64,000 nucleotides of DNA from a bacterium. GTDB taxonomy: Bacteria; Patescibacteriota; Saccharimonadia; UBA4664. The notes below the pieces were generated by a model. The model saw only the letters and a list, made by a program, of their open reading frames with translations, was not told the origin of the DNA and did not search any database. Position 1 is the stretch's first letter. Each line of letters starts with the position of its first letter. A program made the position numbers and the translations under genes. Positions 18,911 through 58,281 of this stretch are shown in pieces. The stretch lies in the NCBI GenBank assembly GCA_016699105.1, contig CP064960.1, positions 1,074,715 through 1,138,714 of the forward strand, in the 5' to 3' direction.

Positions 18911-19094
18911 AATTTAATCCTGTCAGCGTGTAGCGCGAGTGTCAACATTATTAAATTACATATTCGCAATGTGGAACACCTGCCTGAATTACTCCTCCAT
19001 ATAGTGGGGAATGAGGAGCCGTCACTCCGTGACTTTCCTGCGGTACTCGGAATACGGTACCAAAACAAAAGCTCCCTGATGGGAGCACTTGTTT

Positions 19095-23902: not shown

Positions 23903-23932
23903 GAAACTCTCCTTTTATTTAATTTGGGACGG

Positions 23933-25876: not shown

Positions 25877-25919
25877 AAGTTATACCCATGATAGGGAAGA
25901 AAGTTGCACAACAGATCAA

Positions 25920-25956: not shown

Positions 25957-25989
25957 TTGCGCCAATGCGAAGTTAAGTGGCACCATATT

Positions 25990-26290
25990 TTGGACAGTTT
26001 GATAATGATGCATAATAAGCTGGTTAATATACCTGGTTATGAGAACCAATTTCGAGAAACTCGTAATGCTTATTTGTCTCGCGATACACCACCCGCAGAT
26101 CGCCGCCTCTTGAGAACGCACGAAGACCCTTTATCGTTCCGACTAGAGGGCGGTCATCCAGCGGTTAATCGCGCACGCCATCAATAAAAATTGGAGGCGA
26201 AGTGCAAACTGGTCTTTCAGCTTGGGATTGGGTGAAATGCGACTATGAAAATTCTTAACGAATTTCTTGTGTCGAATGATAGGCTTCGGG
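25990..26290 (-). pseudogene. Decayed RelE/YafQ-family toxin gene copy
   Basis: The DNA is about 70% similar to 40536..40802. Translation gives IIRHKKFVKNFHSRISPNPKL...GGDLRVVYRETNKHYEFLEIGSHNQVY with a lost start, a frameshift and an internal stop (gattaaccg versus gattacccg). An att-like motif copy follows at 25957..25996. Confidence 0.5.
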
Positions 26291-26397
26291 GCTTAGCACG
26301 ACGGACTTGCCGTGAGAATCAAGCGTATGAGCAGCCGGATCCATGCAACAGATCATTCCTGGTGCCGAGAGAGATGTGAGGTTCGGTGAGTCTCTAT

Positions 26398-27973: not shown

Positions 27974-28024
27974 ATTCTGAGTATAACATATCAGTCCACA
28001 CCAATTGGTGTGAATTATTATTTT

Positions 28025-28460
28025 GGTGCGCGAGAGAGGAGTGTGTCTCGGCAAAGCCTCGCCACGCTTCGCCGGATTACCGGCTCGCCCGAACTAGCTT
28101 TTCTATTGTGCCGGTTCGACCCGTTCGTTACATACCAAAGCAAAACTCCCCTGGCGGGGAGATTTGCTTTGGTGCGCGAGAGGAGTGTGTCTCGGCAAAG
28201 CCTCGCCACGCTTCGCCGGATTACCGGCTCGCCCGAACTAGCTTTTCTATTGTGCCGGTTCGACCCGTTCGTTACATACCAAAGCAAAACTCCCTGGCGG
28301 GGGAGGTTTGCTTTGGTGCGCGAGAGAAGAGTGTGTCTCGGCAAAGCCTCGCCACGCTTCGCCGGATTACCGGCTCGCCCGAACCAGCTTTTCTATTGTG
28401 TCGGTTCGACCCGTTCGTTACATACCAAAGCAAAACTCCCCTGGCGGGGAGGTTTGCTTT
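28025..28460. repeat. Tandem array of 3 units of ~145 bp, each a degenerate partial tRNA-Leu copy plus a terminator-like hairpin
   Basis: The units are 28025..28170, 28171..28314 and 28315..28460. Each begins (plus strand) with ggtgcgcgagagaggag, the reverse complement of the tRNA-Leu 3' acceptor/T-stem. Each contains the hairpin aaagcaaaactcccctggcggggagatttgcttt and a ggtat.cacg-like D-loop remnant. The units are more than 95% identical to each other. Confidence 0.8.
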
Positions 28461-28462
28461 AG

Positions 28463-28544
28463 TGCGCGAGAGAGGAGTCGAACCTCCACGCCTTGCGGCA
28501 CCTGCCCCTCAGACAGGCGTGTATACCATTTCACCACTCGCGCG
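28463..28544 (-). tRNA. tRNA-Leu (anticodon GAG), CCA not encoded
   Basis: The reverse complement folds as GCGCGAG-TG-GTGAAATGGTATACAC-G-CCTGT-CTGAGGG-GCAGG-TGCCGCAAGGCGT (long variable arm)-GGAGG-TTCGACT-CCTCT-CTCGCGC-A. Confidence 0.85.
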
Positions 28545-30588: not shown

Positions 30589-30642
30589 ACTTCTATGATA
30601 CGGCGCGGCGCGGCGCCAATACAAGCCGCTTGTGCTACGATA

Positions 30643-31281
30643 ATGACTATGAATCAGCAGACAACATCCGCACTGGCAAATGCCCGGCAGAACGTAGAAG
30701 CTGATGCTTGCGATCAACGAGTAATGCCAGCATTTCGGACACGCTTGTTTGAGCCGCAACATTCAGTAGTTGGCGCTGTTCTCCTTTTGCCAGGTTACAC
30801 TTCACCGACGGATCAATTCGCTGATCTTGCTCAGATACTGGCGGATCGTGGCTACTATGCGTACATCCCACGTGCGCCGCGTCATGGAGTAGTTGACGGA
30901 CCACTAAGAATTGCGCCAACAGCCCCAGAGCTACAAGCGTATGCACGATCGGGTGCTGATATTGTTATGCGGCTATGTCCAGGTTCGAGTGGTGCGATTG
31001 GACTTAGTGGTGGAGCGGTTCTAGCTGCTTGGCTAACGGCTCAATCAGATATACAATTGAATCGACTTCTCCTTTTGAATCCATTTCTGGAACCGGCTCG
31101 TCGCCTCGTGCCGAAGTGGCGACTACATTTACTGCTTGCAATCTATGGTACACAGCGATGGCTGCCGGATAGACCCGATCCAACGCATGAGGCACGCACA
31201 TTTGCCGGACTCGCCAGCTACTTATTGCTTGCTCGATCGATCCCCGACAACTCTTACCTATACATATTGACGCCGCATTAA
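30643..31281 (+). CDS. Alpha/beta-hydrolase fold protein
   Basis: VLLLPGYTSP is followed by GLSGGAVLAAWL, a GxSxG-like nucleophile elbow. It is divergent from the oxidase gene. Confidence 0.5.
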   Translation: MTMNQQTTSALANARQNVEADACDQRVMPAFRTRLFEPQHSVVGAVLLLPGYTSPTDQFADLAQILADRGYYAYIPRAPRHGVVDGPLRIAPTAPELQAYARSGADIVMRLCPGSSGAIGLSGGAVLAAWLTAQSDIQLNRLLLLNPFLEPARRLVPKWRLHLLLAIYGTQRWLPDRPDPTHEARTFAGLASYLLLARSIPDNSYLYILTPH

Positions 31282-32948: not shown

Positions 32949-33776
32949 TTGGGTGACGCTGCGTCGGCGGTTCATCGCTGGGTCGATGACATAAAGCAAA
33001 GCCAGCTTCCGATCAAAGTTGTTCATGCCGACACGCCAGCAGCTGAACAGCTCAGCGGTTACTGGGTCATCACCTCATCCAGCCTGCTGCTTCGTCCAAG
33101 TGGCAGTGACGACAAACGCGGCTGGATTGAGCTCATCTATGTTGGGGCCGCCACGCAGCTGATCGAAGACCTGGTGATCCGGGCTGCCTGTGCAACCGGA
33201 ATGGTTCACACCGATCCTGACTCGGCGCCTCAGATCACGAATGGTGTGTTGGAGTATGGCCCCATCAGTCCGTATGCCATCGATCACGAAAGATTCGCTT
33301 TGCGTCTTCAAGCCGAGATCCGCACAACACTATCGTCGGGGTCGATCGTCGGCATCACCGTGGCTAGAGTAATCTGCCCGGTCGATACTGTCGACCAGAT
33401 CCCGCCGACCGTCACGCTGCTACATCAAGAGCAACGGGGCGATCACCGCGTGGTCGTGGGTGCTAACTTCCGGTTGACGGCCGGACTAAAACCAGATATG
33501 GCTTACAATCGTCCGGAGGCGCCCGGCATCTATCCACACAGCTGGCCGTATCTCGTCCAGCTCCTGTATCAGAAGATCTACGAAGCGGGCATATTCAATG
33601 TTGTTGAGCAGATTCGCGTCATCACAACTGAAACTGGTGCCGGTCAGCTCGTCTTCGTCGTCGATCCCTATGAACAGGATGGATATCAGGAAGCCTTAGG
33701 CCAGGCCGTTGCGCGAGCGGCCGTACTGTTCCTGGGTGACCGAGCCGTGGTCGATGTGGTAAGTCCGGTCTCATAA
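32949..33776 (+). CDS. Hypothetical protein (275 aa), possibly N-terminally extended by the frameshifted ORF 32671..32994
   Basis: The long ORF lies between the two copies of the dyad element. No recognisable domain was found. Confidence 0.4.
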   Translation: MGDAASAVHRWVDDIKQSQLPIKVVHADTPAAEQLSGYWVITSSSLLLRPSGSDDKRGWIELIYVGAATQLIEDLVIRAACATGMVHTDPDSAPQITNGVLEYGPISPYAIDHERFALRLQAEIRTTLSSGSIVGITVARVICPVDTVDQIPPTVTLLHQEQRGDHRVVVGANFRLTAGLKPDMAYNRPEAPGIYPHSWPYLVQLLYQKIYEAGIFNVVEQIRVITTETGAGQLVFVVDPYEQDGYQEALGQAVARAAVLFLGDRAVVDVVSPVS

Positions 33777-33899
33777 CGCTCCCACCCCCGCCGGACGTAC
33801 CCGCCAGCCCAACCCTAACCCCGCCTGGGGCGCACGCAATACTCCCGCCCGGGAATACGTCATCAGGCGGGGTATTTGCGTGGGTTAACCCATATCGCT

Positions 33900-36617
33900 A
33901 TGGCTCGGTTCAACGCGGTCTTGAACCAGCTGCTGCAGCCCAGCGAACTGGTTCTGTCTGCCGCCGAGAAAGCCTCACAGCACAGGCAGGCCTGGCAAAA
34001 GCAGTACCACTTCGAATATACGACAAAAATTTTATCAAGACCGCAAGATAAGTATGATAGTGTAAGACTTATGAGCGAGATGCCTGAGAATAATGAGCAG
34101 CAGATATTCGGCTCACTTGATCTGCAACCTGAGTTGTTAACTCACCATGTGCCACCTGAGACTGAGCCCTCAAACATTGCTCCGCAAGAAGCTATCACTC
34201 AGATAGACGCAGTCGGCCCTGATTCGGCCATTGACGCACACCAGCTCGTTGATTGGATAGTGGCGGCCGAGCATGCACCCGATTCGGACTTATCAATCCA
34301 GCTTGAGAAAATGCGATCCTGGCGTTCTCCCGGCGACCAATATCGCATCAACCAGCCGAATAAATTAGCGCTCGATGCTACTATCATTGGTTTGGTTGCA
34401 ACAAGGCATGCAAAACTCGCCGAGAAACTTATTTCATCGTCCCAGCAAGAACTCCAAAATTTGCGCTTTGCCACTAGTCTATACGCCGAGCGCAATGGAC
34501 TAGACGAGGCGGCCAAATTAGCGATCGAGAGAGAAATAAATTCAATTGTACAAAGAAACCGTACAGCATTACTCTCCAGAATGACTATCAGTTCTGCCCC
34601 CGAAGGTTTTGCTGCCGTTGTGGTCGATCGAGCGGCCAATCCTGATAGTGCCGGTGCGATCTCCGAAGCGCAATGGCAACTCATAGGCCAGCTTGGCTCT
34701 GAGGCGCAAGCTTCCCTTCTCGCGAGCAGCCGAATGGATCGGACAGCTTGCGGGATCCAAGACCTTGACACTCATGGCTTGCTCGGTGATATGCCGATTC
34801 TGATAGGCCGCATTGACCAACTTGATGATCGTGATCAAACCGAAGCTTATCTGACGGAATACGGGCAAGCCGTCGGCAAACTCGCCGAAATGCAGCAATC
34901 CGGCCAGGAGCTACGTCTGCCTATTATTAAGCGAGAACTAGCTCAGTTTGCGCAGCCGGATCAGGCATTGGCGGCCAGTGAAGCGATCTATGGCGATCTA
35001 CCGCTCGATGTTGCCACAAGCAAACTGGCCGACTTATTTCGTGATCCGGCTCATCAACAAGACCTGGTGCCGGTTGACCCTCAAATACTTGCACAACTAA
35101 CTATGGCTCGAGTTCGTTTTGACGATTTGGGTGTTTTGGATGATCTGCTTCCACCTCTTTTGGACCGCATTCGCGATTCTACAGATCAACCACAGTTGGT
35201 CGAGGATATACTGACGGCAGTGGCGGCGGCACAAGCGCTCAAGGGTGAGCGACTGTTATACTTGGATCCAGTTATCCAGACAGATCACCCCGCAGAATTG
35301 GCAGCTAGTCTAGCCAAAGTCACGGGTTTGGCCGAGCCAATGAATGATCCAACCCGCGCCGAGCTCCTTCGAGCTATTACCGATGCCCCCTCTGCTCCGC
35401 AAGCCGTAGATATGCTTCAGTCTTGCAGCCAAGCTCTAGCGTCGCGGAGCCTAAAATTTGATAGTGAGTCCGATATTACGATATCTGACATGCTGCGACA
35501 ACTCTCCCCAGTAGCCGAACAGGTGTCCGAGGCTGACCCGCAAGTGCGAGCCGACCGTTTGTCGCAAGCTGCCGAGCGAATTGCTAGTAACTACCTCGTA
35601 GCGCGGGAGATTACTGATATTTACAACAAGAATTATGGTGAAGCAATATCTCTCGCAAAGGGCAGGCGAGCCGTGTTGTCCGATTGTCCAGAAATCGCCC
35701 GCCGAATGGCAGATATTGGGTGCAGTGGAGACGATGCTAATCGAATGTTTTCGACCTGGTCGTATCACAGTGAATATGCAATGGCATCATATGCCCGTGC
35801 GCAACGAGGCGAGGGTAAGGTTACACTTAATATGCTACCCGCGTTAGTAAACCTACAGCGCCAGCATATCGAAAAAAATCTGCGGAGTTATGAGGACTAC
35901 GTAGCTCGGTTTGGATCCGAAGAGGCACGCGAGATTATGACAATGTTCAAGATTACCAACTTTGAGCATGTGGGAGTAGATTTACTACATGACCAATTGG
36001 AACGATGGCGCTCCGGCGAACGGCCAGTTGAAAATCTTATGATTGTTTCTCGTGCCGACTGGAACGGAGCGAACTCCAACGCCGGACAAGATACGCAGGA
36101 GGTTTTCAAAGACACAAACTTTTTTGTTTTTGAAGCGGGTAGTGCCCGAGATCTCGACGACATTCGCCGCGCGGTTAAGGATCGCGAATTAAGTCATGGT
36201 CGAGTTCCCAAAGAGGAGAATGCAGTGAAAAATGTTGTGATCCACGCGCATGCCAATCCAGATGGTATTCTCTTGGGGTTAGATGGAGAAGCCATTAATG
36301 TCGGTCAGTATCTTAAGTTGCAAAAGCTTCCAAACGCCCGTGCTCGCACGTACGAAGAGGAGCTCGGCTCTGCCTACCGCATTATTATCCAGGCATGTAG
36401 TACGAAAGGTGAAAATACTAGTCGTTTCCTGATTGGTGCAGACGGTAGACTCGTCCCAGGTCCAAATATTGCAGCTACAATCCATGAATATCACCAACGC
36501 ACCGTTGAGTCATCGCCTGTACCCACCGTAGGTAATATCGTCACAGACGAGAATGATAAGGTTTGGTTCGGCATCGCGGGAGGCTACTTAGAAAGCACGC
36601 CCTACGAAAAGGTGTAA
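33900..36617 (+). CDS. Large (~905 aa) protein with alpha-helical N-terminal region and predicted C-terminal caspase-like (clan CD, CHAT/C14-like) His-Cys peptidase domain
   Basis: Three C-terminal strands match the caspase-hemoglobinase fold: NLMIVSRADW (first strand plus Arg), NVVIHAHANPDGILLGLDG (His strand) and YRIIIQACSTKGE (QAC-type Cys strand). Their spacing is about 70 and 48 aa. No P-loop was found. The likely start is ATG 33900, immediately after dyad-element copy 2. Confidence 0.55.
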   Translation: MARFNAVLNQLLQPSELVLSAAEKASQHRQAWQKQYHFEYTTKILSRPQDKYDSVRLMSEMPENNEQQIFGSLDLQPELLTHHVPPETEPSNIAPQEAITQIDAVGPDSAIDAHQLVDWIVAAEHAPDSDLSIQLEKMRSWRSPGDQYRINQPNKLALDATIIGLVATRHAKLAEKLISSSQQELQNLRFATSLYAERNGLDEAAKLAIEREINSIVQRNRTALLSRMTISSAPEGFAAVVVDRAANPDSAGAISEAQWQLIGQLGSEAQASLLASSRMDRTACGIQDLDTHGLLGDMPILIGRIDQLDDRDQTEAYLTEYGQAVGKLAEMQQSGQELRLPIIKRELAQFAQPDQALAASEAIYGDLPLDVATSKLADLFRDPAHQQDLVPVDPQILAQLTMARVRFDDLGVLDDLLPPLLDRIRDSTDQPQLVEDILTAVAAAQALKGERLLYLDPVIQTDHPAELAASLAKVTGLAEPMNDPTRAELLRAITDAPSAPQAVDMLQSCSQALASRSLKFDSESDITISDMLRQLSPVAEQVSEADPQVRADRLSQAAERIASNYLVAREITDIYNKNYGEAISLAKGRRAVLSDCPEIARRMADIGCSGDDANRMFSTWSYHSEYAMASYARAQRGEGKVTLNMLPALVNLQRQHIEKNLRSYEDYVARFGSEEAREIMTMFKITNFEHVGVDLLHDQLERWRSGERPVENLMIVSRADWNGANSNAGQDTQEVFKDTNFFVFEAGSARDLDDIRRAVKDRELSHGRVPKEENAVKNVVIHAHANPDGILLGLDGEAINVGQYLKLQKLPNARARTYEEELGSAYRIIIQACSTKGENTSRFLIGADGRLVPGPNIAATIHEYHQRTVESSPVPTVGNIVTDENDKVWFGIAGGYLESTPYEKV

Positions 36618-40316: not shown

Positions 40317-40361
40317 GGTTTAATTATACATCGGTGTAGATGCCTGTAATGAGTTTACAAT

Positions 40362-40493
40362 AGCCGAGTATTTTGGGGTAATCTTCGATAAGGTTCCAAC
40401 CTATCAAGAAATAGTGGATTGAACCAAAAATACCAGCCTTGTACCGGATATAAATCAGATATTTCAGCTGGCATTCTTGCCAAATAATTCATT
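40362..40493. repeat. ~132-bp element-end repeat, copy A (copy B at 44635..44766), abutting a tRNA-Leu 3'-fragment-like motif
   Basis: agccgagtattttggggtaat.ttcgataaggttccaacct...ccagccttgtacc.gatataaatcagatatttcagctggcattcttgccaaataattcatt is about 93% identical at the two sites. Confidence 0.7.
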
Positions 40494-40535
40494 GGTGCGC
40501 GAATGCGCCGTTAGGTGGAACCAAATTGAAGCTAG
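40494..40535. repeat. att-like motif family 2 (ggtgcgcgaRtgcgMcgttagNtggaaccaMattga), copy at the 3' end of the toxin gene
   Basis: Other copies lie at 41194..41233 and 42269..42310. Degenerate copies lie at 25957..25996 and ~42990..43030. The motif shares tcgcgcacc with the tRNA-Leu 3' end. Confidence 0.6.
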
Positions 40536-40802
40536 CTAATATACCTGATTATGCGATCCTACATCTAGAAACTCGTAGTGGTCTTCGGTCTCCCGATACA
40601 CAACTCTTAGATCGCCGCCAATTGAAAAAGCGCGCAATCCCCTCTTTGTCCCAACAAGTGGATGATCGTCCAGCGGGTAATCGCGTACGCCCTCTGTAAA
40701 TAATTGTAGCCGGGTCTGGAACTGTTTCTTGAGTTTGGGGTTCGTGGAAATGCGACTTTTGAAATTCTTTTCGAACTTACGGTGACGGCGTATAGGCTTC
40801 AT
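40536..40802 (-). CDS. RelE/YafQ-family type II toxin (mRNA interferase)
   Basis: 88 aa. ...DYPLDDHPLVGTKRGLRAFSIGGDLRVVYRETEDHYEFLDVGSHNQVY is a typical RelE/YafQ C-terminus. It sits 3 bp downstream of the antitoxin. Confidence 0.7.
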   Translation of the reverse strand: MKPIRRHRKFEKNFKSRISTNPKLKKQFQTRLQLFTEGVRDYPLDDHPLVGTKRGLRAFSIGGDLRVVYRETEDHYEFLDVGSHNQVY

Positions 40803-40804
40803 AC

Positions 40805-41083
40805 CTATAAGTCATTCATGAAGTCTTCAACGGAGCTAAATTCTTTGATCTTGCCTGACTTTTTTTCCGCATCAAGATCGGCGATCATTTGCTCATAACG
40901 AGCATTGGCTTCTGGGCTTAAAACAACAGCCTTGCCGTCAAAGTCGAGCTTTCGACCGTCTGCCTCGGCTTTTGCCCACACGCGGATATAGGCCTGGGCA
41001 GAATCAAAACCGAGGCTGCGTGCACGGCGCTCTAGGCCATCGCGAACATCTTGATCAATAGGGATTTGTAACTTGGTATTCAT
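40805..41083 (-). CDS. RelB/DinJ-like antitoxin
   Basis: 92 aa, encoded upstream of the toxin. A direct repeat aaatggtat x2 and a tataaat box lie in 41095..41135. Confidence 0.6.
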   Translation of the reverse strand: MNTKLQIPIDQDVRDGLERRARSLGFDSAQAYIRVWAKAEADGRKLDFDGKAVVLSPEANARYEQMIADLDAEKKSGKIKEFSSVEDFMNDL

Positions 41084-41277
41084 AGTACTTAAATGGTATC
41101 AAAATGGTATATAAATGTCAAAAGATAGACAATCTACAACGAAGACAAAGAGACGAACCAATTTGGCCGTCTTCTTATCTGTAAATTATTCCTGGTGCGC
41201 GAGTGCGACGTTAGATGGAACCACATTGAGACGTGCATTCTGCTGATGTATCAAAAACTAGAAGCTCTTGGCTTCAC

Positions 41278-42000
41278 TTATCGAGACGGTGAGATTTGGC
41301 CGCCCCGAACTACGATGCCACGGCCGCTGAAAAACTTCTTAAATTCGTTAAAGTTCACAGCTGCGTATTCTTGGGTCTCTTTTGAAATACCAGATGGATT
41401 GTGTAGATAGAATTCTTGTTTGGGCTTATCGTAACCCACCATAAGCACAAGATGCCCGCCTTTCGTCTTGGGCTTACTGTCTGGATATCGAATCCACGGG
41501 CTAACTCCAGCGATCACAAAGTTGCCTTTGCTGAGTTCATGAGTAAGTTCCTGTAAGGTGATACCCTGAACAACTCTCGCTTTCCATCCAAGCTCTTTTT
41601 CAACGTACGAAATGTAGGGCTTGTAGTAGAGACCCGCCGAATTTTCTAGTGGCATAACGTATCCACCGTACTCGGTGCATTTTGTGCCGAGCTCAACAAG
41701 CGGCACGATCTTGCCGGTGCGGTACGCTAGAATCATCTTTGTGCAGGCCATGCCGCAGGCGCTCCAGCTCCAGTCGTGGTACTCCTTTTTAGTCTTCGCT
41801 CCTGACTTCTTCCAATTTGGGTCGTCGTCGGTACTGATTTTCTTCTCAAGAATCGATTTCGCTAGTTCGCGCGATTCCCATTGGCAAAAATATGGCACGT
41901 CTTCATAAACAAATCGATCGGGCGCGGGGAGAGGCCGTATAAAATACTTAACTCGTTTAGCGTGATGAAGTAGGTGGTTTTTTATGTTTCTCATCTGCAC
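41278..42000 (-). CDS. Peptidase C39-like (papain-fold cysteine peptidase) domain protein
   Basis: The Cys block WSACGMACTKMIL, the His block GGHLVLMVGYD and FYLHNPSG are present. Confidence 0.6.
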   Translation of the reverse strand: MQMRNIKNHLLHHAKRVKYFIRPLPAPDRFVYEDVPYFCQWESRELAKSILEKKISTDDDPNWKKSGAKTKKEYHDWSWSACGMACTKMILAYRTGKIVPLVELGTKCTEYGGYVMPLENSAGLYYKPYISYVEKELGWKARVVQGITLQELTHELSKGNFVIAGVSPWIRYPDSKPKTKGGHLVLMVGYDKPKQEFYLHNPSGISKETQEYAAVNFNEFKKFFSGRGIVVRGGQISPSR

Positions 42001-42123
42001 TCAGAATACCAGATTTAGCCGGAAAGGACTTGAACACGCATCAACAGATTACGATTACAAAAAGAAAAGTTCCAGAAATAGATTCTGGAACTTTTCTATC
42101 TGGAATATTTTGAATAATATCCT

Positions 42124-42268
42124 GGTGCGCGAGAGAGGAGGGTGGCTCAGCAAGCTTCGCCACGCTTCGCCGGATTACCGGTTCGCCCGAACCCGCATAT
42201 TTTCTGCGTCGGTTCGACTCGTTCGTTACATACCAAAGCAAAACTCCCCTGGTGGGGAGATTTGCTTT
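42124..42268. repeat. Dispersed copy of the ~145-bp tRNA-Leu-derived repeat unit
   Basis: It begins ggtgcgcgagagaggag and ends with the hairpin aaagcaaaactcccctggtggggagatttgcttt. Further copies are at 42891..43030 (truncated), 44767..44915 (plus a partial copy at 44916..44931) and 45825..45984 (divergent, adjacent to tRNA-Leu CAG). Confidence 0.75.
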
Positions 42269-42306
42269 GGTGCGCGAGTGCGACGTTAGCTGGAACTAAA
42301 TTGAGG

Positions 42307-42840
42307 CTAGTTTTGCGCCCGTCCGTTCATGAGGAATTCATAGGTAGCGTCGCAACGGAGTTTCTGAGCGCTAACCTGTCCCTCAACGAAGGCCGGATCG
42401 GTGCGGATATCAATTTGGATGGGGTCGCGATCGGTATATTCAATGAGTAGGCGAGCGGGGTCATAGTTCCAGGTTACTTTCTCAATCGTACAGTACCCGA
42501 ATGCGGCGATGATATCGTCGTTGCGGGCATTGCGTTGAATATTACTCTGTAGGAAGAAAGCAGCCGAGATGGAGCCGAAAGTTAGGGTTAACCAAAAGAG
42601 GCCAAGATAGACATTAAGAATTCTAGGGTGCGTCTTTAGCCACCGCCCCAATAGTATGCTTAGCGCGAGAAAGGTAATGGCGCCAATTAAATATGCTAGT
42701 GCAGCTACCACGCTCAGGCCGCTGTCGGTACCCGTGACCGTGATTGTCGTATATATGGTTAATCCGACAAGCACAATTGTAATGGCGGTCAGAAACCAAA
42801 TATAAACTTTCCAGCTTTGGAGAAACCGCATGATAACCAT
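42307..42840 (-). CDS. Integral membrane protein (4 TM)
   Basis: 177 aa with 4 hydrophobic helices. Confidence 0.45.
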   Translation of the reverse strand: MVIMRFLQSWKVYIWFLTAITIVLVGLTIYTTITVTGTDSGLSVVAALAYLIGAITFLALSILLGRWLKTHPRILNVYLGLFWLTLTFGSISAAFFLQSNIQRNARNDDIIAAFGYCTIEKVTWNYDPARLLIEYTDRDPIQIDIRTDPAFVEGQVSAQKLRCDATYEFLMNGRAQN

Positions 42841-43018
42841 AGGATTATTCTAGCGCATATAATCAAATTATCCCCGGCGGATTAGGCCTTGGTGCGCGAG
42901 AGAGGAGGGCGTCTTGGCATAGCTTCGCCACGCTTCGCGCGATTACGCGCTCGCCCGAACCCGCATATCTTCTGCGTCGGTTCGACTCCACCACTTTTGC
43001 CTACCAATGCTACATTAG

Positions 43019-43426
43019 GTGGAGCCACATTATTCTTTTATAGTTAATATCATAGCCTATGAGATGCATCTGACGAGGTATAATTCGACTATGGATCAGA
43101 CTGCTCCACCTACTTTATGCGAATCAAAAGCTGAGACGCCGAAGCAAGTCGTAAGCTTAGGCACTATAGCAGACTATCTAGTTAGCTACACACAAAAGTA
43201 CAGACAAGAATACGCTAGGCTAATCGAGGCACCCCCGAAAGGGGCTGGCTTCCCTGATATCGTTAAATCACCTTATCTTGAGCGCAGCAATGTAGCATTG
43301 TATGTGGCACGTGATGGTGCTGTCTTATTGGACGCTTCAGAGCCGGAATACGATTGGTATATAGCGGGTGGACCGGCGTTTATGGTAGATTACCCCGACC
43401 TAATTCGCGTGTGCCAGAGAGTATAA
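43019..43426 (+). CDS. Hypothetical protein
   Basis: 135-aa ORF immediately upstream of the DUF4263-like gene. Confidence 0.35.
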   Translation: MEPHYSFIVNIIAYEMHLTRYNSTMDQTAPPTLCESKAETPKQVVSLGTIADYLVSYTQKYRQEYARLIEAPPKGAGFPDIVKSPYLERSNVALYVARDGAVLLDASEPEYDWYIAGGPAFMVDYPDLIRVCQRV

Positions 43427-43546
43427 AATCCATCTTGCGCTCTGCGGGAATATTGGAAAACCAATTGGGATATATCGATTGGTATTTCCGCCGGAGAAAA
43501 TTCAAATGGTAATTGGTTAACAGATTTTCCGGCTGCTGTAGACCAA

Positions 43547-44518
43547 TTGTCGGTCTCAGTCCCTGACGGACCACAATTTAAGATCTTGAAGTTAGATGTG
43601 CCGTGGAATGAGCTGATTTCTCAACTAACCTTCGGCGCTTACGGCCCAATTCTTGATGTGCATTTGCCCTCTACCTCGAATATCAACTTCTGGCAGCCGA
43701 TGATCGTAAGAAAGCTGGGTTTTCTTACGGCCGATCGTGAGCATCGGAGATTTTTGCAGTATGCCGAATTTATTCGTCATACTGAGGACGCTGCATGGGA
43801 TAAAAGGGGTATTTGGGCTCGATCGAAGCTTGACGTTCAAAGAGACCTTGCAAATGCAATTGCAATGTCAGAAAAAGATGGGGCTACGATGTCATTCGGC
43901 GAAAATCAACATGATGTACTCATCCAAATTAGGGATCGACTTGCTCGCCTAGAGACAGCCGTAAAGGGGCTTGAGGAGCTGCTACTAAAGGACCCCGGGG
44001 ACGATGAACGGCTCTACCAGAAGTTTCTTGAAGATAATCCATTACTGATAGATATATATGGCGAGGTAATACCTAGGCCACGGCTTGTATATCCGAGAGA
44101 TACGTCACCCTTAGGTAAGACATATATTGAGCCCGATTTCATAGTGCGTAGACCAGGGAATCGGTATCGCTTAATTGAAATTGAACGCCCTTCAAAGAAG
44201 ATGGCCACAAAAGCCGGGCAAGCGCGTGCCGAGACAACGCAAGCTTCATTTCAAATCTCGGAGTTTAAGGATTTTATTAAAGAGCACCACGATGTTATCA
44301 AGGATAGATTTCCGGGAATCCATCGGGCGACAACAAGTACTATCATTATCAGTCGAGCTACTGAAGAGAGTTTTGGTGGTAGGTCCAATATAAGAAGGCA
44401 GCTCTTGCTTCTCGAGAGCCAACTGGGAGTAGAAGAGCTTCTGACGTATGATGATCTATTATCTCAGGCCAAAGTTGCATTACAACAACTTGCTGGTATC
44501 ACACCAGATGTTAGCTAG
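43547..44518 (+). CDS. Shedu/DUF4263-like PD-(D/E)xK-fold nuclease candidate
   Basis: The C-terminal block ERLYQKFLEDNPLLIDIYGEVIPRPRLVYPRDTSPLGKTYIEPDFIVRRPGNRYRLIEIERPS resembles the DUF4263 pattern (FLe.nPwLl ... PDF.l ... vvElKrp). The canonical Lys is replaced (EIER), so activity is uncertain. Confidence 0.4.
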   Translation: MSVSVPDGPQFKILKLDVPWNELISQLTFGAYGPILDVHLPSTSNINFWQPMIVRKLGFLTADREHRRFLQYAEFIRHTEDAAWDKRGIWARSKLDVQRDLANAIAMSEKDGATMSFGENQHDVLIQIRDRLARLETAVKGLEELLLKDPGDDERLYQKFLEDNPLLIDIYGEVIPRPRLVYPRDTSPLGKTYIEPDFIVRRPGNRYRLIEIERPSKKMATKAGQARAETTQASFQISEFKDFIKEHHDVIKDRFPGIHRATTSTIIISRATEESFGGRSNIRRQLLLLESQLGVEELLTYDDLLSQAKVALQQLAGITPDVS

Positions 44519-45108
44519 ACTGGCCTGAATGATCGTCATGGGTCAAGAATCCACCGGGGAATATTGACGATCTAGGGCCTTCTGGTGGAACAACAGTCAG
44601 ATTGACTACTCCGTACCTGTAACCCACTAACTAAAGCCGAGTATTTTGGGGTAATTTTCGATAAGGTTCCAACCTACCAAGAAATAGTTGATGGAACCAA
44701 AAATACCAGCCTTGTACCCGATATAAATCAGATATTTCAGCTGGCATTCTTGCCAAATAATTCATTGGTGCGCGAGAGAGGAGTGTGTCTCGGCATAGCC
44801 TCACCACGCTTCGCATGATTACATGCTCGCCCGAACCAGCTTTTTTATTATTGTGTCGGTTCGACTCGTTCGTTACCTACCAAAGCAAAACTCCCCTGGC
44901 GGGGAGGTTTGCTTTGGTGCGCGAAGTGACCTCAATTTGGAACACATTACAACCTCAATTGGTTGCTCTGGATAGTAAGCTAGGAGGATTTGGGCTTCAA
45001 ATCATTGAAGGGAAGACTACCTATCCTGAAGCATCAAACGAATTTGAGGACTCGGGGTAGGCCCGGCCCCGCGTCAGAATCAACACGGGAGCCGGGGCGG
45101 ACATGAGG

Positions 45109-45606
45109 TCAGGCAGCGGCGCCGTTGGTGTATGTCGTCCGGGCGTCGCCCCATCCATCTCCGGAGTACACGCCTTCGAGGGCGCCCATCGCCTGGAGTA
45201 GGATCATCGCGACCTTGAGGCGCAGGATAGCCACCTCGTCGTGATGATGATCAGCCAGAACGCTCTCGATGGTCCACACTTGCGTGTAGTCAGCCCAGCG
45301 GAGCCAATCTGGCATTGCGCAAAGCACTCGCCCGAGGGCGGCCGGCGCGAGCCGCCCAGCCCGATCGAGTGCGACTTCAGCAGCTTTGCTGTCGCGACCA
45401 CGATTGGTCGCCAGCTCACAGGGCTCGAAAGCCCAACGCGACTGAATACCGCCGGCGATCTCGAGAAGATGCCGAATATCTGCTTCCTCGCTCATGGAAG
45501 TGTCCCTCTCTAGAGCGTTGGCCTGGAACCTGATTTCCTGGGCCGGATTACCACCACTGTGCTTCAGTAGCAATAAGCCGGCCAGGACTCTCATATCAAA
45601 ATTCAA
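45109..45606 (-). CDS. Hypothetical protein in a GC-rich (~60% GC) segment
   Basis: The 165-aa ORF has markedly higher GC than its flanks. It is bounded by repeat copies at 44767..44931 and 45825..45984. Confidence 0.4.
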   Translation of the reverse strand: MNFDMRVLAGLLLLKHSGGNPAQEIRFQANALERDTSMSEEADIRHLLEIAGGIQSRWAFEPCELATNRGRDSKAAEVALDRAGRLAPAALGRVLCAMPDWLRWADYTQVWTIESVLADHHHDEVAILRLKVAMILLQAMGALEGVYSGDGWGDARTTYTNGAAA

Positions 45607-45984
45607 CCTTTACGATTGAATGATGACTATTTTAGCATAAGTAGTACGTTTTGTCAAATATTGTGCTCAAACGAGCGCCTGCAGTGCATCGATTTTCATA
45701 GCCCAAAAGAGGAGTCGAACCCATGATTTTGCATAAGCCAAGCCATAATAAGCAAAACGGCCCCAAGATAAAGTATTATCTGGAACCGTTTTGTGGCTTG
45801 AGGGAGCCATATAATAACTTGGTGCGCGAGAGAGGAGTGAGGCTAAAGCCTCCTCCCTGCGGTGCTCGCAAAATAGCCGAGCAAGCTCGGCTATTTTGCT
45901 GCGCTCCTCGTCTACCGAACCTACGGTTCTCCCCTTTTTCTCCTACCATAGTAAAAACCCGACCTCGTGTCGGGTTTTTACTAT

Positions 45985-46069
45985 GGTGCGCGAGAGAGGA
46001 GTCGAACCTCCACACCGTTGCCGGCACTAGAACCTGAATCTAGCGTGTCTACCATTCCACCACTCGCGC
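45985..46069 (-). tRNA. tRNA-Leu (anticodon CAG), CCA encoded
   Basis: The reverse complement folds as GCGCGAG-TG-GTGGAATGGTAGACAC-G-CTAGA-TTCAGGT-TCTAG-TGCCGGCAACGGTGT-GGAGG-TTCGACT-CCTCT-CTCGCGC-A-CCA. A terminator hairpin aaaaacccgacacgaggtcgggttttt follows. Confidence 0.85.
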
Positions 46070-50070: not shown

Positions 50071-51503
50071 TCAATTATTTTTAGTCTGGCCGAGATATTC
50101 AACGACGATTTTGGCCTTAGCCGGTCCAATCACCAAGCCTATCTCTTCGATGCTGGCAATTTTGACACCACGGACTGATCCGAACCGCTTGATGAGCGCT
50201 TTGCGGGTGGTGGGCCCGACTCCGGGAATACTATCGAGCAAACTGGTAGTCGCCCGTTTGGCTTGCAGAATACTCTGATAGGTTATGGCAAAACGGTGGG
50301 CTTCATCGCGAACCCGCTGGAGTAGTTGCAAAACGTGGCTGGATGGTGCCAACTGGATCATGCGATAGGTTCCGTCAGCTTGGCGCTGGACGACTTCCTC
50401 GAGCCGCTTCGCTAAACCAATAGCCGGAATCGGCATGCCACTGGCGGTCAGCACTTCCAAGGCTCCCAGCAAGCTGTGGTTGACCGCCATCGATGAGGAT
50501 CAAATCAGGTTTCGGCCAATCGGCCAGGTTCTTAGCACTCAGGCGCCGCGTCAGGACTTCTTTGATGTGACCGACATCATTATTCCCAGCCAATCGCATC
50601 TTGAATTTGCGATATTCATCCCGATTGGGAAGGCCATCTGAGAACACGACCATGCTGGCGGCATTGCCCGTGCCACCAAGGTGACTGATGTCGTAAGCTT
50701 CGATGCGCCGGGGCAAGACATTGAGGCCAAGTAGCTCAGTCAGGCCAGTCAGCGCTTGATCTCGGGTCAGATCGAAGGTTTCGGTATCACCAAAATGATC
50801 TGCCGGCCCAAGCCTTTGAGATCTTGAATCTGATCACGCAGATGGGCCGCCGCTTCATAATCCTTTTTGGCGGCCGCCTTGGCCATTTCTTTCTCGAGCT
50901 GGCTGATCAATTTGGGTTGCTCACCACGGAAATAGAGCTCGAGCCTTTTATCTGACGCTTGTAGTCACTGGCGGTAATAGCTCCAGCTTCTCGACCAGGA
51001 CACAACCCGAGATGATATTGGAGGCAACCCCGGGTTGGCCATTGCTCGTGCGTGACGTAGGGGAACACTTTGCGCAAATGCCGCATGGCTCGCCGCACTG
51101 GATCGCTGGATGTAAATGGGCCGTAGTAATGAGCCTTGTCGTCCATTGGCCGCCGGACATAGCTAATAACCGGGAATTCATCGGCGGATATCTTGATATA
51201 AATAAAGTTTTTGTCGTCTTTGAGGTCGATATTATATTTCGGGCGGTAGCGTTTGACGAATTCAGATTCTAGAAATAACGCTTCGGCTTCCGAGCCAACG
51301 GTAATCCACTCGGTATCAGAGATTTCGGCGACGAGCGCTGCGGTTTTGGCATCGCGAATATTGCCGCGAAAATAGCTCATCACCCGGTTCTTCAAAAGGG
51401 CGGCTTTTCCGATGTAGATAATTTTGCCCTTATCGTTGCGGTGCAAATAGATACCGGGTTCGGCGGGCAGTTCTTTGAGCTTGGCGCGGAGGCGGTCGGT
51501 CAT
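50071..51503 (-). pseudogene. uvrC: Excinuclease ABC subunit C, interrupted into 3 ORFs, short overall
   Basis: 50907..51503 carries the GIY-YIG domain (GIYLHRNDKGKIIYIGKA). 50375..50716 carries the RNase-H-like endonuclease domain. 50071..50490 carries the HhH region (IPGVGPTTRKALIKRFGSV). An ATGA overlap with the uvrA stop is present. Confidence 0.7.
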
Positions 51504-54330
51504 TTTTGGGCTTCGTGGGCAAAAATACGTTTCAAATAGCGACCAGTATGACTATCGGGTTCTTTGGCGACCATTTCGGGCGTGCCCTGAGCTATGACTA
51601 AGCCTCCCCCACTGCCACCTTCGGGCCCCATGTCGACGAGCCAGTCTGAGCTCTTGATAACATCGAGGTTGTGTTCAATCACGAGTACCGTATTGCCAGT
51701 ATCAACTAAGGCATTTAATACACCGAGTAAGCGGTTCACGTCTTCAAAGTGTAAGCCAGTAGTTGGCTCGTCCAAGATGTAGAGCGTGCGTCCAGTGGAG
51801 CGGCGGGCGAGCTCAGTGGCGAGCTTGATACGCTGGGCTTCGCCGCCCGAAAAGGTAGTGGCTGATTGACCGAGATGAATATATCCCAGTCCGACATTGA
51901 ATAATGTTTCAAATTTGCGTCTGATCGACGGGATATTCTCGAAAAACTTCACCGCTTCTTCAACGGTCATATCCAATACATCTGACACCGTTTTGCCTTT
52001 GTAGTAAATCTCGAGGGCTTCACGATTGTAGCGTTTGCCTTTGCAGTCTTCACAGGTCACGTATACGTCAGGCAAAAAGTGCATTTCAATCTTGATAATG
52101 CCGTCACCTCGGCAGAGCTCACAGCGGCCACCCTTGACGTTAAAGCTAAATCGTCCGGCTTTATATCCCCGGATTTTGGCTTCGGGCACCTGGGCGAATA
52201 ACTCCCGGATATCAGTAAAGACTCCGGTGTACGTGGCCGGGTTGGAGCGCGGGGTGCGGCCAATGGGGCTCTGGTCGACTGAAATGACTTTATCTAAATT
52301 ACCCAACCCTTGAATGTCGTCATGCTTGCCCGGTAAATCGCCAGCCCGGTGATAAACGGCACTGAGTTTTTTGGCTAAAATGTCATTGACCAAGCTCGAC
52401 TTGCCCGATCCCGACACGCCGGTGACACTGACGAGCCGACCGAGGGGAATCTCCACATCAATTCCCTGCAGGTTGTGCTCGCGGGCACCTTTGATGACGA
52501 TAGACTTACGGTTGCCCGGGCGACGTTTGGCAGGTGTGACAATGCGTTTAGCGCCCGAGAGATACTGGCCGGTCAAAGAGGCCGGGTTGGCCGCTACTTC
52601 ATCGGGTGTGCCGGATGCGACTACTTCACCACCATGTTCACCGGCGGCTGGACCAATGTCGATGACGTAATTGCTAGCGCGAATAGTGTCTTCATCGTGT
52701 TCGACCACAATGACGGTATTACCCAGATCACGTAATCGTTCGAGGGTTGCAATCAAACGGTCGTTGTCGCGTTGGTGCAAACCAATACTGGGCTCATCGA
52801 GAATATAAAGGACGCCCATAAGGCTCGAGCCAATTTGAGTAGCTAACCGAATGCGCTGGGCTTCGCCACCAGCCAAGGTATTAGCCGATCGATCAAGCGT
52901 CAAATATTCAAGACCGACATCTTGGAGAAAACTCAAGCGAGACTCGATTTCTTTGAGAATCTGGACCGCAATTTGCGCTTGGCGACCTTCGAGTTTGAGT
53001 TCGCTAAACAAGCGGTGCGCCTCACCAATGGACAGGCGCGTCAAATCGACAATCGATTTGCCATCGACCGTGACGGCCAATATTTCGGGCTTCAGCCGTT
53101 GACCATTGCAGACTGGACATTCCCGCTCCGCCATGTACTTTTCGATTTCTTTGCGGACAAAATCGGAATCGGTATCGTGGTAGCGCCGCTCCATGTTAGG
53201 AATGACACCTTCGTAGTTGGTATGGTAGGTGCGGCCACCGGGACCTCGGAGGAAATTGACTGGTCAGGTGCACCATACAAAACAATGCGCAAATCAGACG
53301 ATTTCATGTCGGCAACGGGTACATCGAGCGAGAAACCATTAGCCTTGGCAACACCGTCGAGTAGTTTGGAGTACCAACTCATGCGGCTCGTCGTTTTAGC
53401 CCACGGTCGAATAGCACCTTCGGCCAGGGTTAGGCGGCGGTTCGGAATGACCAATTCGGGATCAACTTCGAGCCGCGATCCCAAGCCAGTACAGTGTGGG
53501 CAGGCGCCGTGTGGTGAGTTAAAGGAGAAATTACGAGGAGCAATTTCGGGCAACGAAATTTCCCGGTGCTCCGGACAGGCATAGTGCTCAGAAAAAATGC
53601 GCATTTCACCGGTGTCAGCTTGGAGGGCTTTGATAATGCCGTCAGCTAGATTGAGTCCTTGCTCGACGGATTCGGTGAGGCGCTGGCGAATGTCGGAGCT
53701 GGTTGCAATCCGGTCAATGACCGCTTCGATAGTATGTTTGCGTTGTTTATCTAGATTGGGAAAATCGGCCAAGTCGTAGACGGTACCATCGACCCGCACT
53801 CTGGTATAGCCAGCTTTAGCGAGCTCCGGCGCGATGTGGCGATATTCACCTTTTTTGTCGTCTACAATTGGTGCCAACAGATACATTTTGGTGCCCTCAG
53901 GCAATTCTAATATCTGATCAACAATTTGACCGGGCGTCTGCCGGACGACTTCGCGGCCGCAGAGGGGGCAATGCGGGGTGCCGACGCGCGCATACAATAA
54001 CCGCAAATAATCATAAATTTCGGTGACCGTACCAACGGTTGAACGGGGATTGCGAGACGACGACTTTTGATCGATCGAAATAGCCGGGCTGAGACCATCG
54101 ATTTGGTCGACATCCGGTTTTTCCATGAGACCTAAGAACTGCCGGGCATAGGCCGATAAGGATTCCACATAGCGGCGCTGACCTTCGGCATAGATGGTAT
54201 CGAACGCCAATGACGATTTACCCGACCCAGATAGGCCAGTAATGACGACCAACTGATCACGTGGTATCTCCACGTTGATATTTTTCAGATTGTGCTCACG
54301 TGCACCCCGGACGACGATTTTATCCGTCAT
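51500..54330 (-). pseudogene. uvrA: Excinuclease ABC subunit A, one frameshift near 53195-53260
   Basis: The N-terminus [18 protein letters not shown] is followed by two ABC ATPase modules with GLSGSGKSS and GVSGSGKSS. The zinc-finger region begins the second ORF, 51500..53194. Confidence 0.85.
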
Positions 54331-54438
54331 AACAACACCACTTACGGGGTGTAATTGTACCGAAAAACTGCCGAATGGTAAAGACCCTACCGTCGCCCGC
54401 ATAGCGCGGAAAACGGTAGGGTCTTGCGGGCACCGTAA

Positions 54439-55409: not shown

Positions 55410-56138
55410 TTATAGTACAGTTTTACTCAGATTGCGATGCCGGCTCGCAGCCTGGCGCCACGCTTGCAGTCGCCACCAAAATTTGGCCGGCGACTCACCC
55501 AGAAATGCCCGGCGCGAGACGCCAACTTTGAGACTTGGCTCATATACGACTAGGCCGTATCGATTGACATGAATACTCAGATCCACATCTTCATGAACAG
55601 ATTGACTGTCGGTGCAGGTTTCAGACTTAACCTTTTGCCAAGCCGCCGCTGTGATAACCATATTCGAGCCATAAAGCGGCTGATGACCCAAAAACAACCG
55701 GGATATACCGAAAAAGCCAAAGGCAATTACAACGTGTCCCACCAACCGACCAAGCCACCGAGGCAAACCATAGGCATAAGCCGGGCCACTGAGCGCGTAG
55801 ATTTCGCCTGCGTGCTTATCACCTAACCGATGCACGGTGGCAACCCAATCTGGCGGCAAAACAGTATCGGCATCGATGCGACCGATCAGATCACTGCGGG
55901 CGGCATTAAAGCCCTTATCCCGGGCCGGGGCGATGCCGCGTTTGGGTTCTTGCAGTAGCTTGACGAACGGATACGATTGGGCGATGGCATCAGTAGCATC
56001 TTGCGAATGGTTATCGACCACAAATACTTCATCGACCGGCAATGTTTGAGCCGCAATCGAATCGAGAGCAGCACGTAAGACTGATTCTTCGTTGTAGGCC
56101 GGTATCACGATCGACAATGTGCGTTTTGGTGGGGCCAT
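55410..56138 (-). CDS. Family 2 glycosyltransferase
   Basis: LSIVIPAYNEE...VFVVDNHSQDAT is typical of GT2. Confidence 0.7.
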   Translation of the reverse strand: MAPPKRTLSIVIPAYNEESVLRAALDSIAAQTLPVDEVFVVDNHSQDATDAIAQSYPFVKLLQEPKRGIAPARDKGFNAARSDLIGRIDADTVLPPDWVATVHRLGDKHAGEIYALSGPAYAYGLPRWLGRLVGHVVIAFGFFGISRLFLGHQPLYGSNMVITAAAWQKVKSETCTDSQSVHEDVDLSIHVNRYGLVVYEPSLKVGVSRRAFLGESPAKFWWRLQAWRQAASRHRNLSKTVL

Positions 56139-56167
56139 CTTGCGTTAATGATACAATAAACCGTATC

Positions 56168-57054
56168 ATGTCACACGTTTTAATACCCGACGTCGTCGAT
56201 GTCCAGGGCAAGCCGGTATTCTTTGTGCAATCTGGTAGTCGCGACAGCCTCGATGTTGTCCTCGTACTGCACGGTTTTATGTCTGATTACCGCAGTATGC
56301 AAATGGTGGCCGAAAAGCTATCGGTGCCGGCCGGAACCGCGATTTTACTACCAGATTTGCCCGGCTTTGGCTCGTCTGAACCATTTCAGACCAATGGCGC
56401 CAGTCTGAATCATTATATCGATTGGGTGGAGTTATTTTTGACTGCAGCCGCGCCATCTGCCCAACGGGTAACTATTATTGGATATTCTTTTGGCTCATAT
56501 ATTGCTATCAATTACGCCGCCAGACAACCAGCACTATTGTCGAATCTCATTTTGATCACACCCGTCATCCGGGTAGCTCGGCCGGTGCGAATGTTTACCA
56601 CAATTTTGACAACTTATCAGATTATTCAATGGCGGCAGCCCATGCTTTGTATAAGTGGCGGCCCAATTTTGACCTGACATCACTGTATCTAACCCGTAGT
56701 CTTCATCCCGAAAAAGTCATCAAATTGCTGCGACACCGCCGGCAAGAATTGCACGACTTGCGGCCAGAAGTTGTGCTCGAATTGTCACGGGAATTGTTGC
56801 AAATTGATTTGCTGGAATCGGCACCACACATCACCATTCCAGTTTTTATCATGGCCGCCAAATATGATACGGTAGCCGTCAAAAGTGCCACCGAGAAGTT
56901 TGTGGCAGCTTTGGGCGAGCGCGGAACTTTGCATTACCTCCCGAAAGCAGGCCATTTAGTGCCGTTTGAAGGTCCCGATCAGATTAATCAAATTTTAGAC
57001 GAAAAATACTGGCCTCAGAACGTAGCCTTGTCACCTCCTGAGAGTGTCAGTTAA
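56168..57054 (+). CDS. Alpha/beta hydrolase, frameshifted (ORFs 56042..56677 and 56422..57054)
   Basis: VLVLHGFMSD and the GYSFGSYIA elbow are present, with the C-terminal half in a second frame. Confidence 0.5.
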
Positions 57055-58220: not shown

Positions 58221-58281
58221 AATACATTTCATTATATGCTTGAAACCATGTTTTGCCGATGCTAGTGATATAATTGTGCTC

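Follow-up and report, generated by a model that had tools for sequence, protein, structure and literature searches.

Why does a hairpin of five base pairs stay paired while the bases that form it change? The question is raised by a 64,000-nucleotide stretch of a Saccharimonadia genome (Patescibacteriota, UBA4664; GenBank assembly GCA_016699105.1, contig CP064960.1, positions 1,074,715 to 1,138,714, hereafter the window), in which modules of ~145 bp without genes follow two tRNA-Leu genes and carry such a hairpin, here called arm B. In tRNA orientation, each unit runs from a terminator hairpin through a body of ~95 nt to an exact copy of the last 18 nt of tRNA-Leu, CTCCTCTCTCGCGCACCA, CCA included, and all copies lie on the minus strand downstream of tRNA-Leu(GAG) or tRNA-Leu(CAG), at no other location (Table 1). 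We find that arm B varies by paired changes within arrays whose gains and losses fall at tRNA-end repeats, and we tentatively read it as part of an attachment-site module of a serine-recombinase integration system.

A first-pass annotation of the window had proposed that a 5-bp hairpin with loop atta is kept paired by double changes across dispersed copies of the repeat, and this stands: arm B is 100% paired in all 7 type-1 sequences (the six units of the window plus one further copy, L043, together about five lineages), with two of its five pairs changed on both sides. Some details differ from that account. It had all three inner stem pairs differing, whereas variation is confined to pair 3 (C-G, G-C or A-U) and pair 4 (G-C, C-G or U-A), pairs 1, 2 and 5 being constant with the sole exception of the G.U closing pair of u42123; and it took the 42124 copy to be the same as those of the 28-kb array, and all copies to be perfectly complementary, whereas the 42124 copy reads GCCGGATTACCGGT and has a G.T closing pair.

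In each of the nearest type-1 pairs (u42123/u42890 and u28024/u44766), which belong to different sub-lineages, all four inner arm B positions differ, against 5 of ~68 positions elsewhere in the body; by our own arithmetic, the chance of such a four-position change is ~0.07^4 = 3e-5 per unit pair. Around these four hypervariable columns lie ~29 invariant ones, and the ATTA loop is invariant as well. The motif GCNNGATTACNNGC occurs five times on the plus strand of the window, compared to 0.14 expected from shuffles, but the five matches are homologous repeat copies and thus not five independent events; in all, the arm B sample comprises three stem variants and at most two derived events. The arm B sequence of u42890 is the same in five independent short-read assemblies (L049-L053); contigs around the 177-aa islet gene represent the same strain and add no variation. 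All arm B variants are stable when folded as RNA or as DNA. The variable core of each arm is a 4-nt palindrome (CCGG, CGCG or CATG; chance roughly 1/16 to 1/64), so that one arm repeats the other both directly and in inverse orientation; this is required by neither a hairpin nor an operator and, with three variants, may be due to chance.

Arm B is embedded in a larger fold. For the type-1 alignment, RNAalifold returns a three-way junction in which a closing helix, GCGA/UCGC, involves the tRNA-end sequence and encloses arms A and B, followed by a separate arm C (CGAACC/GGUUCG). In this alignment 92% of cells are paired, compared to 35-44% in slid controls, and its covariation score was reached by 0 of 500 shuffles; the inner pair of arm A runs through the series G-C, G.U and A-U. 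An outer closing stem suggested by single-sequence folding, UGGUG/UACCA, was dropped because it lacks RNAalifold support, and its UACCA strand is better read as an extension of the terminator stem. The type-2 unit, composed of terminator, arm C (GAACC/GGTTC), a 15-bp arm B, arm A and the 18-nt tRNA end, yields the same junction together with its L054 homologue, independently of type 1. Here, the arm B position holds a perfect 15-bp inverted repeat with a 4-nt spacer; three double-sided changes separate the type-2 unit from the L054 homologue, and arm B is the most diverged part between them. A covariance model of type 1 scores the type-2 unit at full length with 20.7 bits and the L054 unit with 13.3 bits, above the 7-9 bits of real tRNA-Leu genes with the same 18-nt core, which makes the unit types one family beyond the shared core; the model detects no further copies within the window. 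Arm A reads GAGGC/GCCTC, GTGGC/GCCAC or GTCAC/GTGAC depending on the unit type, the last in a unit behind tRNA-Val, and the terminator stems covary between types as well (CTCCCC, CCCGAC, CACCCC, GGGCTC). The tRNA-Val-type unit consists of a terminator, ~41 nt with the arm-A-like hairpin GTCAC/GTGAC, and a degenerate tRNA-Val end, CTCCTCATTCCCCAC, and has the block CGAG(C/T)ACCGCAGG in common with type 2/3 units.

The type-1 family is mosaic, in that L043 combines a u28024-like arm A with a u42890-like arm C, and u42123 and u42890 have a common arm C but a different tail; degenerate cores are found in the L043 and L060 units and in Val-type units. Because the copies are mosaic, short gene-conversion patches or template switches that correct palindromes could import paired changes without selection at the locus. 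The earlier view that such covariation is unlikely without selection is supported in part by the paired double changes, the uneven conservation and the covariation of other helices and of a second family, but falls short of a proof of selection. We consider that the pairing of arms A and B is probably kept by selection on a folded single strand, which is the simplest explanation.

That the repeats derive from tRNA, as previously suggested, is visible in three parts of the unit. Besides the 18-nt tRNA-Leu end, there is the strand 5' of the hairpin in tRNA orientation, GGGCGAG, which is one substitution away from the 5' acceptor strand of the tRNA, GCGCGAG, and forms an acceptor-like pairing with CTCGCGC, and there is the block GCGAAGCGTGGCGAGG, similar to GCCGCAAGGCGTGGAGG, the variable-arm/T-stem region in tRNA-Leu(GAG). 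Compared to class II tRNA-Leu (RF00005), the units thus keep the acceptor-stem strands, the discriminator A with CCA, the T-stem strands and part of the variable-arm region, but have no D arm, carry arm B with its 5 bp and 4-nt loop in place of the anticodon arm, and have a T loop enlarged to 13-17 nt. They are tRNA-derived, yet not tRNAs: when the window was compared with Rfam 15, only the three tRNA genes matched at the gathering score, and the units had no match on either strand at E<=10, to the tRNA model (RF00005) or any other, their sub-threshold matches being terminator-like noise; ARAGORN likewise returned only the three real tRNAs. Two further observations concern the tRNA ends. In tRNA orientation, the type-1 body (left part, 28103-28137 and its equivalents) begins with TGGTATGTAACGAACGAGTCGAACC, a diverged tRNA 3' end in inverted form, and u42890 carries exactly GGAGTCGAACC, so that each terminator is flanked by convergent tRNA-end-like sequences. 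In addition, positions 28460-28462 of the window read CTA where CCA is expected after tRNA-Leu(GAG); the corresponding end in L103-L105, in L112 and in the repeat units themselves is ..CACCA.

In total, the two tRNA-Leu genes are followed downstream by twelve tRNA-end cores, which are without exception on the minus strand and in the orientation of the genes. Besides the tandem array at tRNA-Leu(GAG), units 42123, 42890 and 44766 and the type-2 unit are dispersed over 4.8 kb behind tRNA-Leu(CAG), and the single-gene stretches between cores and units (40504..45819; genes called by Pfam), which we refer to as islets, are about 0.6-1.9 kb in size and mixed in gene orientation. The short tRNA-end fragments at 40493, 41193, 42268 and 44910 are 9-11 nt long. 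A motif, GGTTCCAnCTAACGnCGCA, with T or G as the fourth-from-last base, precedes the short ends at 42268, 41193 and 40493 (at 42279-42299, 41204-41224 and 40504-40524), and GTTCCAGA-type hairpins or motifs recur right after cores; the recurrence of both, observed across the window and L043, marks them as candidate protein-binding arm sites of islet-type elements. Islet B also contains a tRNA T-arm-like fragment, GGGTTCGACTCCTCTTTTGGGC (~45700-45725, minus strand), and a similar one is found in the native tRNA-Leu(CAG) flank of L062 (~7988-8012); such fragments may be traces of older integrations.

Table 1. Coordinates of repeat units, arm B hairpins, tRNA genes, tRNA-end cores, islets and recombinase remnants in the window.
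Feature	Position	Strand	Details
tRNA-Val-type unit	19004..19094	-	directly after tRNA-Val (19095-19171)
Tandem array of three type-1 units	28024..28461	-	period 146 bp; abuts tRNA-Leu(GAG); TRF: 3.1 copies, 95% identity; covariance model 133-141 bits
Arm B, tandem array	28071-28084, 28215-28228, 28361-28374	+ (reading)	GCCGG-ATTA-CCGGC, GCCGGATTACCGGC; three identical copies
tRNA-Leu(GAG) gene	28462..28543	-	ARAGORN; Rfam tRNA 51.5 bits; 3' end ..GCGCACTA
Second dead recombinase 3' end	40345..40492	+	abuts core 40493-40503; tblastn 77%/47 aa, E 9e-19
Short tRNA-Leu ends, similar to that closing islet B	40493-40503, 41193-41203, 42268-42278	-	
Islet F	40504-41192		YafQ/ParE toxin and antitoxin
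Islet E	41204-42122		C39-like peptidase
Type-1 unit u42123	42123..42267	-	128.8 bits
Arm B, u42123	42169-42182		GCCGGATTACCGGT; closing pair G.T (+ strand G.U; other strand A.C)
Islet D	42279-42889		177-aa membrane protein
Type-1 unit u42890	42890..43030	-	116.6 bits; terminal hairpin unlike other units; identical in L049-L053
Arm B, u42890	42937-42950	+ (reading)	GCGCGATTACGCGC
Islet C	43031-44560		Shedu
Dead 3' end of large serine recombinase gene	44561..44765	+	reads directly into u44766 core; tblastn 68%/75 aa, E 9e-28; in-frame stops
Type-1 unit u44766	44766..44909	-	131.7 bits
Arm B, u44766	44813-44826	+ (reading)	GCATGATTACATGC
Short displaced tRNA-Leu end closing islet B	44910..44920	-	TTCGCGCACCA in tRNA orientation
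Islet B	44921-45819		165-aa protein without assigned function; own strong promoter (promoter scan)
Type-2 unit	45820..45983	-	type-1 model 20.7 bits, E 3e-4
tRNA-Leu(CAG) gene, head of dispersed array	45984..46069	-	ARAGORN, Rfam

The content of the arrays differs even between 99%-identical strains, and the breakpoints of these differences lie exactly at tRNA-end repeats. The type-2 unit is precisely missing in the near-identical strains L029 and L059, and the 3.7-kb block 41204-44909 is precisely missing in L059 and L103, where the closing core of islet B is joined to the toxin-antitoxin islet. At tRNA-Leu(GAG), the window carries three type-1 units, L103-L105 one and L112 at least two, counts that assembly collapse may have affected. 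Relatives at 80-82% protein identity (L054, L060) have one unit directly after tRNA-Leu(CAG), that of L060 being found also in another context (L043), and relatives at about 60% protein identity (L062, L063, L064) have empty sites, their native tRNA-Leu(GAG) terminator being nearly identical to the terminator of the type-1 unit. Beyond this circle, a scan of a genome collection (species representatives), with only the conserved hairpin flanks specified, gave 26 matches, all due to chance, and a scan of metagenomes gave 16, of which one, L043, is genuine and represents a single further copy. Viral scans for the unit flanks, the type-1 and type-2 blocks and the recombinase returned chance matches or none, and those for the bare 18-nt core only two jumbo-phage tRNA-Leu genes and one tRNA fragment; a composite four-frame protein query for open reading frames (ORFs) miscalled over related repeats had no matches. 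The GC-rich viral contig L068 (IMGVR_UViG_3300011997_000017) has no complete tRNA, but a terminator and a 3' piece of tRNA-Leu that ends in the same 18 nt; this is probably the attachment core of an unrelated element.

The enzyme associated with these repeats appears to be a large serine recombinase. With the C-terminus of the recombinase of L103 as a tblastn query, we found two dead 3' ends of such a gene running up to cores in the window (Table 1), and the ~155 bp after one of these cores (44611-44765) are near-identical to those after the other (40338-40492). In L103-L105, an intact gene for a 575-aa protein with a Resolvase domain (PF00239) ends inside tRNA-Val, and in another Saccharibacteria genome (L113) an intact 67% homologue runs in antisense direction into tRNA-Leu(TAG); the contig of P0121 begins within the recombinase gene, with the attL side alone visible. 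The homologues P0169 and P0192 match PF07508 (Recombinase), PF13408 (zinc ribbon) and, weakly, coiled-coil-type families, no Pfam match was obtained for the 272-aa C-terminal part of the L103 recombinase, and the family is common in Patescibacteria. One decayed element can be followed within the window, composed of a recombinase remnant, Shedu, the u42890 body and a core, with the unit body at its recombinase-distal end. The tRNA-end repeats, the strain variation and the recombinase remnants and homologues abutting tRNA ends together identify the array as a case of tandem integration at the 3' end of a tRNA, a kind already known. The earlier proposal that the repeats are functional, as RNA or recombination-site DNA, and not debris therefore gains a tie to site-specific recombination, through the breakpoints and the remnants, but not a choice between action as RNA and as DNA. 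A primer-binding-site-like element, an IS200/IS605 insertion sequence end, an IS110 bridge RNA and a homing guide of a CRISPR transposon were also considered and rejected, as Pfam searches revealed no reverse transcriptase, TnpA/TnpB, DEDD recombinase or Cas gene.

Type 1 favours the plus strand of the window, on which G.U pairs are found in 39 cells (4 on the other strand), 92% of cells are paired (78%) and the alifold energy is -33.5 kcal/mol (-29.6), while type 2/3 is symmetric (-45.2 vs -45.0). This plus strand is antisense to transcription of the tRNAs. A promoter scan found no promoter-like site inside any unit on either strand, and the unit hairpins, with a GC-rich stem and a T run, score as intrinsic terminators on both strands (9 sites vs 0.7 expected, and 14 vs 4.6), so that the units are bracketed by bidirectional terminators. 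The lack of a promoter, the terminators and the antisense orientation of the favoured strand make a free-standing small RNA unlikely, but would still permit read-through transcripts. In L063, the hairpin that elsewhere precedes the unit body sits between tRNA-Leu(GAG) and tRNA-Val, which are only 38 nt apart, a spacing that suggests that the hairpin is leaky to transcription.

The explanation we favour, at a little less than even confidence when taken as a whole, is that arm B is part of a folded gene-less module of a serine-recombinase integration system operating behind tRNA-Leu genes. In such a system, a large serine recombinase would stack single-gene islets behind these genes, and each module would regenerate the tRNA end, and with it a fresh landing pad, while supplying a terminator; any two tRNA-end repeats could then recombine, deleting or inserting the stretch between them. 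The fold would serve the module as a DNA-level recombination or insulation element rather than as a free-standing small RNA.

Several observations weigh against this explanation. A Pfam search of the window proteins found no intact recombinase within the 64 kb, and no intact copy was found at tRNA-Leu(GAG) or tRNA-Leu(CAG); as the far end of an intact element is unseen, the role of the unit body as an element arm is read from the one decayed element. Serine-recombinase sites need only ~40-50 bp of duplex DNA and no hairpins, and arm B lies ~30-45 nt from the likely crossover, outside the minimal site; the order of terminator, body and core is unlike that predicted for a simple attR scar. Arm B itself is known in just three variants, is absent from the tRNA-Val-type unit and has three broken pairs in the L054 unit, and the strand preference is modest in type 1 and nil in type 2/3. 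A bolder version of the same idea, which we consider improbable, takes the gene-less units as portable, tRNA-mimicking landing pads that, together with the serine recombinase, make up an integron-like cassette system in bacteria of the candidate phyla radiation (CPR). Each unit would present a new attachment site and an insulator, either as a folded single strand or as a mimic of a tRNA gene, and the two hypervariable, always paired and palindromic base pairs of arm B would serve as a code by which modules are identified or found compatible.

Among the alternatives, action of the units as RNA is unlikely but deserves the closest attention. Reached by read-through transcription that starts at tRNA-Leu or at islet genes, and with arm B kept as an RNA helix, a unit could form a tRNA-Leu-like minihelix ending in ACCA that is processed by the tRNA machinery and acts as a decoy or a processing ('punctuation') signal, or it could be a structured 3' untranslated region and insulator. 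The tRNA-like fold, with its acceptor-like GGGCGAG/CTCGCGC pairing and ACCA end, speaks for this, as do the series from G-C over G.U to A-U and the excess of G.U pairs, which are typical of RNA helices; read-through itself is suggested by the hairpin within the 38-nt tRNA-Leu(GAG)/tRNA-Val gap of L063, and Shedu, on the plus strand, reads into u44766. However, neither strand of the units carries a promoter, bidirectional terminators surround the units, the strand favoured by G.U pairs is antisense both to the tRNA-like reading and to tRNA transcription, and Rfam, its tRNA model included, gives no match at E<=10. The absence of units from relatives at about 60% identity, and from some strains at 99%, further indicates that they are dispensable.

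A little less probable still is that the fold is under no selection at all, the stems having been inherited from tRNA arms and palindromic terminator flanks, and the modules being decaying integration scars. The paired changes would then stem from gene-conversion patches between paralogous units, or from intrastrand template switching that corrects quasi-palindromes. The mosaic nature of the type-1 family (L043 in arms A and C; u42123 and u42890 in an arm C without a common tail) fits this well, and a four-base change between 93%-identical copies is easier to obtain as one patch than as four substitutions; the degenerate cores in L043, L060 and the Val-type units, the three arm B mismatches in the L054 unit and the presence of only two derived arm B states point the same way. 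Against this stand the very uneven conservation, with ~29 invariant columns and an invariant ATTA beside four hypervariable positions, and arms A and B that are paired with differing sequences in unit types at different tRNAs; moreover, a conversion donor itself needs an evolved compensated stem, and the change from CG to GC has no wobble intermediate. Finally, the 'hairpin' might never fold and instead be a duplex inverted-repeat operator, in which a dimeric protein, for example a repressor or a recombination directionality factor, binds two half-sites of 5 bp at a distance of 9 bp and the two change together as specificity shifts. While the spacing would suit a dimeric helix-turn-helix protein, the half-sites change in concert between invariant flanks around an invariant central ATTA, and a hairpin has no need for the palindromic cores CCGG, CGCG and CATG, we consider this very unlikely: the perfect 15-bp inverted repeat of type 2, with its 4-nt spacer, and the partly mismatched one of L054 look like stems, no candidate cognate protein varies with the units, and the G.T closing pair of u42123 breaks the symmetry.

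Elsewhere in the window, many genes are split by frameshifts, among them those for UvrC (three pieces), UvrA (two), an FAD oxidase, Shedu, a hydrolase and a glycosyltransferase (regions 50071-54402, 29271-30762, 43019-44518, 56042-57054 and 57158-58337), and related contigs hold intact counterparts of Shedu (476 aa, L049) and of the FAD oxidase (535 aa, L054 and L103); this reflects either an indel-rich long-read assembly or a decaying genome. The ~9 kb at 19172-28023, between tRNA-Val and tRNA-Leu(GAG) with its units, encode LexA-like and proteasome-like proteins, an ECF sigma factor, RadC, a sulfate permease and MGMT; the block is common to L103-L105, and the distance between the two tRNAs in L063 is only 38 nt. 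A 913-aa ORF (33876-36617) and the neighbouring 275-aa ORF (32949-33776) have no Pfam match, and L103 has a single 345-aa gene in their place. A PIN-domain toxin gene (15422-15817) lies outside the arrays, the window being generally rich in toxin and defence modules.

How does the array compare with known systems? Integrons carry single-gene cassettes, often for toxin-antitoxin or defence functions, between structured attC repeats of 60-150 bp whose pairing is conserved more than their sequence. The present islets are likewise single-gene stretches between structured repeats, with one strand favoured in type 1, but here the repeats contain tRNA ends of 9-18 nt, the genes point both ways and the recombinase is of the serine type. 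Pfam identified no Phage_integrase-type (IntI) protein in the window, and the units lack the R''/R' core consensus (RYYYAAC/GTTRRRY), the nearest sequences by eye, ATGTAAC and CCCGAAC/GTTCGAC, breaking it. From work on ICESt elements of Streptococcus thermophilus, cis-mobilizable elements (CIMEs) reportedly keep their att sites while encoding no recombinase, accrete in tandem arrays and are mobilized in trans. Those described span kilobases and contain genes, whereas the present units hold only a terminator and a folded tRNA mimic.

The concept of CIMEs and accretion is also quoted for the closest parallel, the ssrA islands of Dehalococcoides (PMC3146451). There, one small-RNA gene is followed downstream by several islands in tandem, each bounded by a ~20-bp direct repeat of the gene 3' end; the gene for the large serine recombinase DsiB adjoins attL, with the repeat embedded in the gene end, many islands have no integration genes, and variation between strains is high (PMC3146451). 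The present array matches these islands point by point in its repeats, tandem islets and strain variation, and two of its cores are abutted by dead recombinase 3' ends, but its targets are tRNA-Leu and tRNA-Val in a CPR bacterium, its islets hold single genes within about 0.6-1.9 kb, and the folded, gene-less tRNA-like modules of ~145 bp, which also form a pure tandem array, have no counterpart described in PMC3146451. The array also follows the general rule for islands in tRNA and tmRNA genes (Islander, PMC4383910), by which the disrupted tRNA gene is made whole by a copy that the island brings along and the far end is recognisable from a displaced tRNA fragment, with tyrosine integrases as the usual catalysts; structured gene-less units lie outside that description (PMC4383910). 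Arrays of this type are hence already known, and the novelty lies in the folded tRNA mimic without genes that is interspersed with the islets.

Gene gain and loss are little understood in Saccharibacteria and other members of the CPR, whose genomes are tiny. The locus described here is a compact, fast-turning cassette array that carries Shedu and toxin-antitoxin genes, is anchored at tRNA 3' ends and is linked to a recombinase family widespread in the group. If the fold is needed for recombination or insulation, the module would be a new attachment-site element and possibly a landing pad for the engineering of bacteria that are hard to manipulate; if it is not, the arrays would provide a clear natural case of paired changes arising in mosaic repeats.

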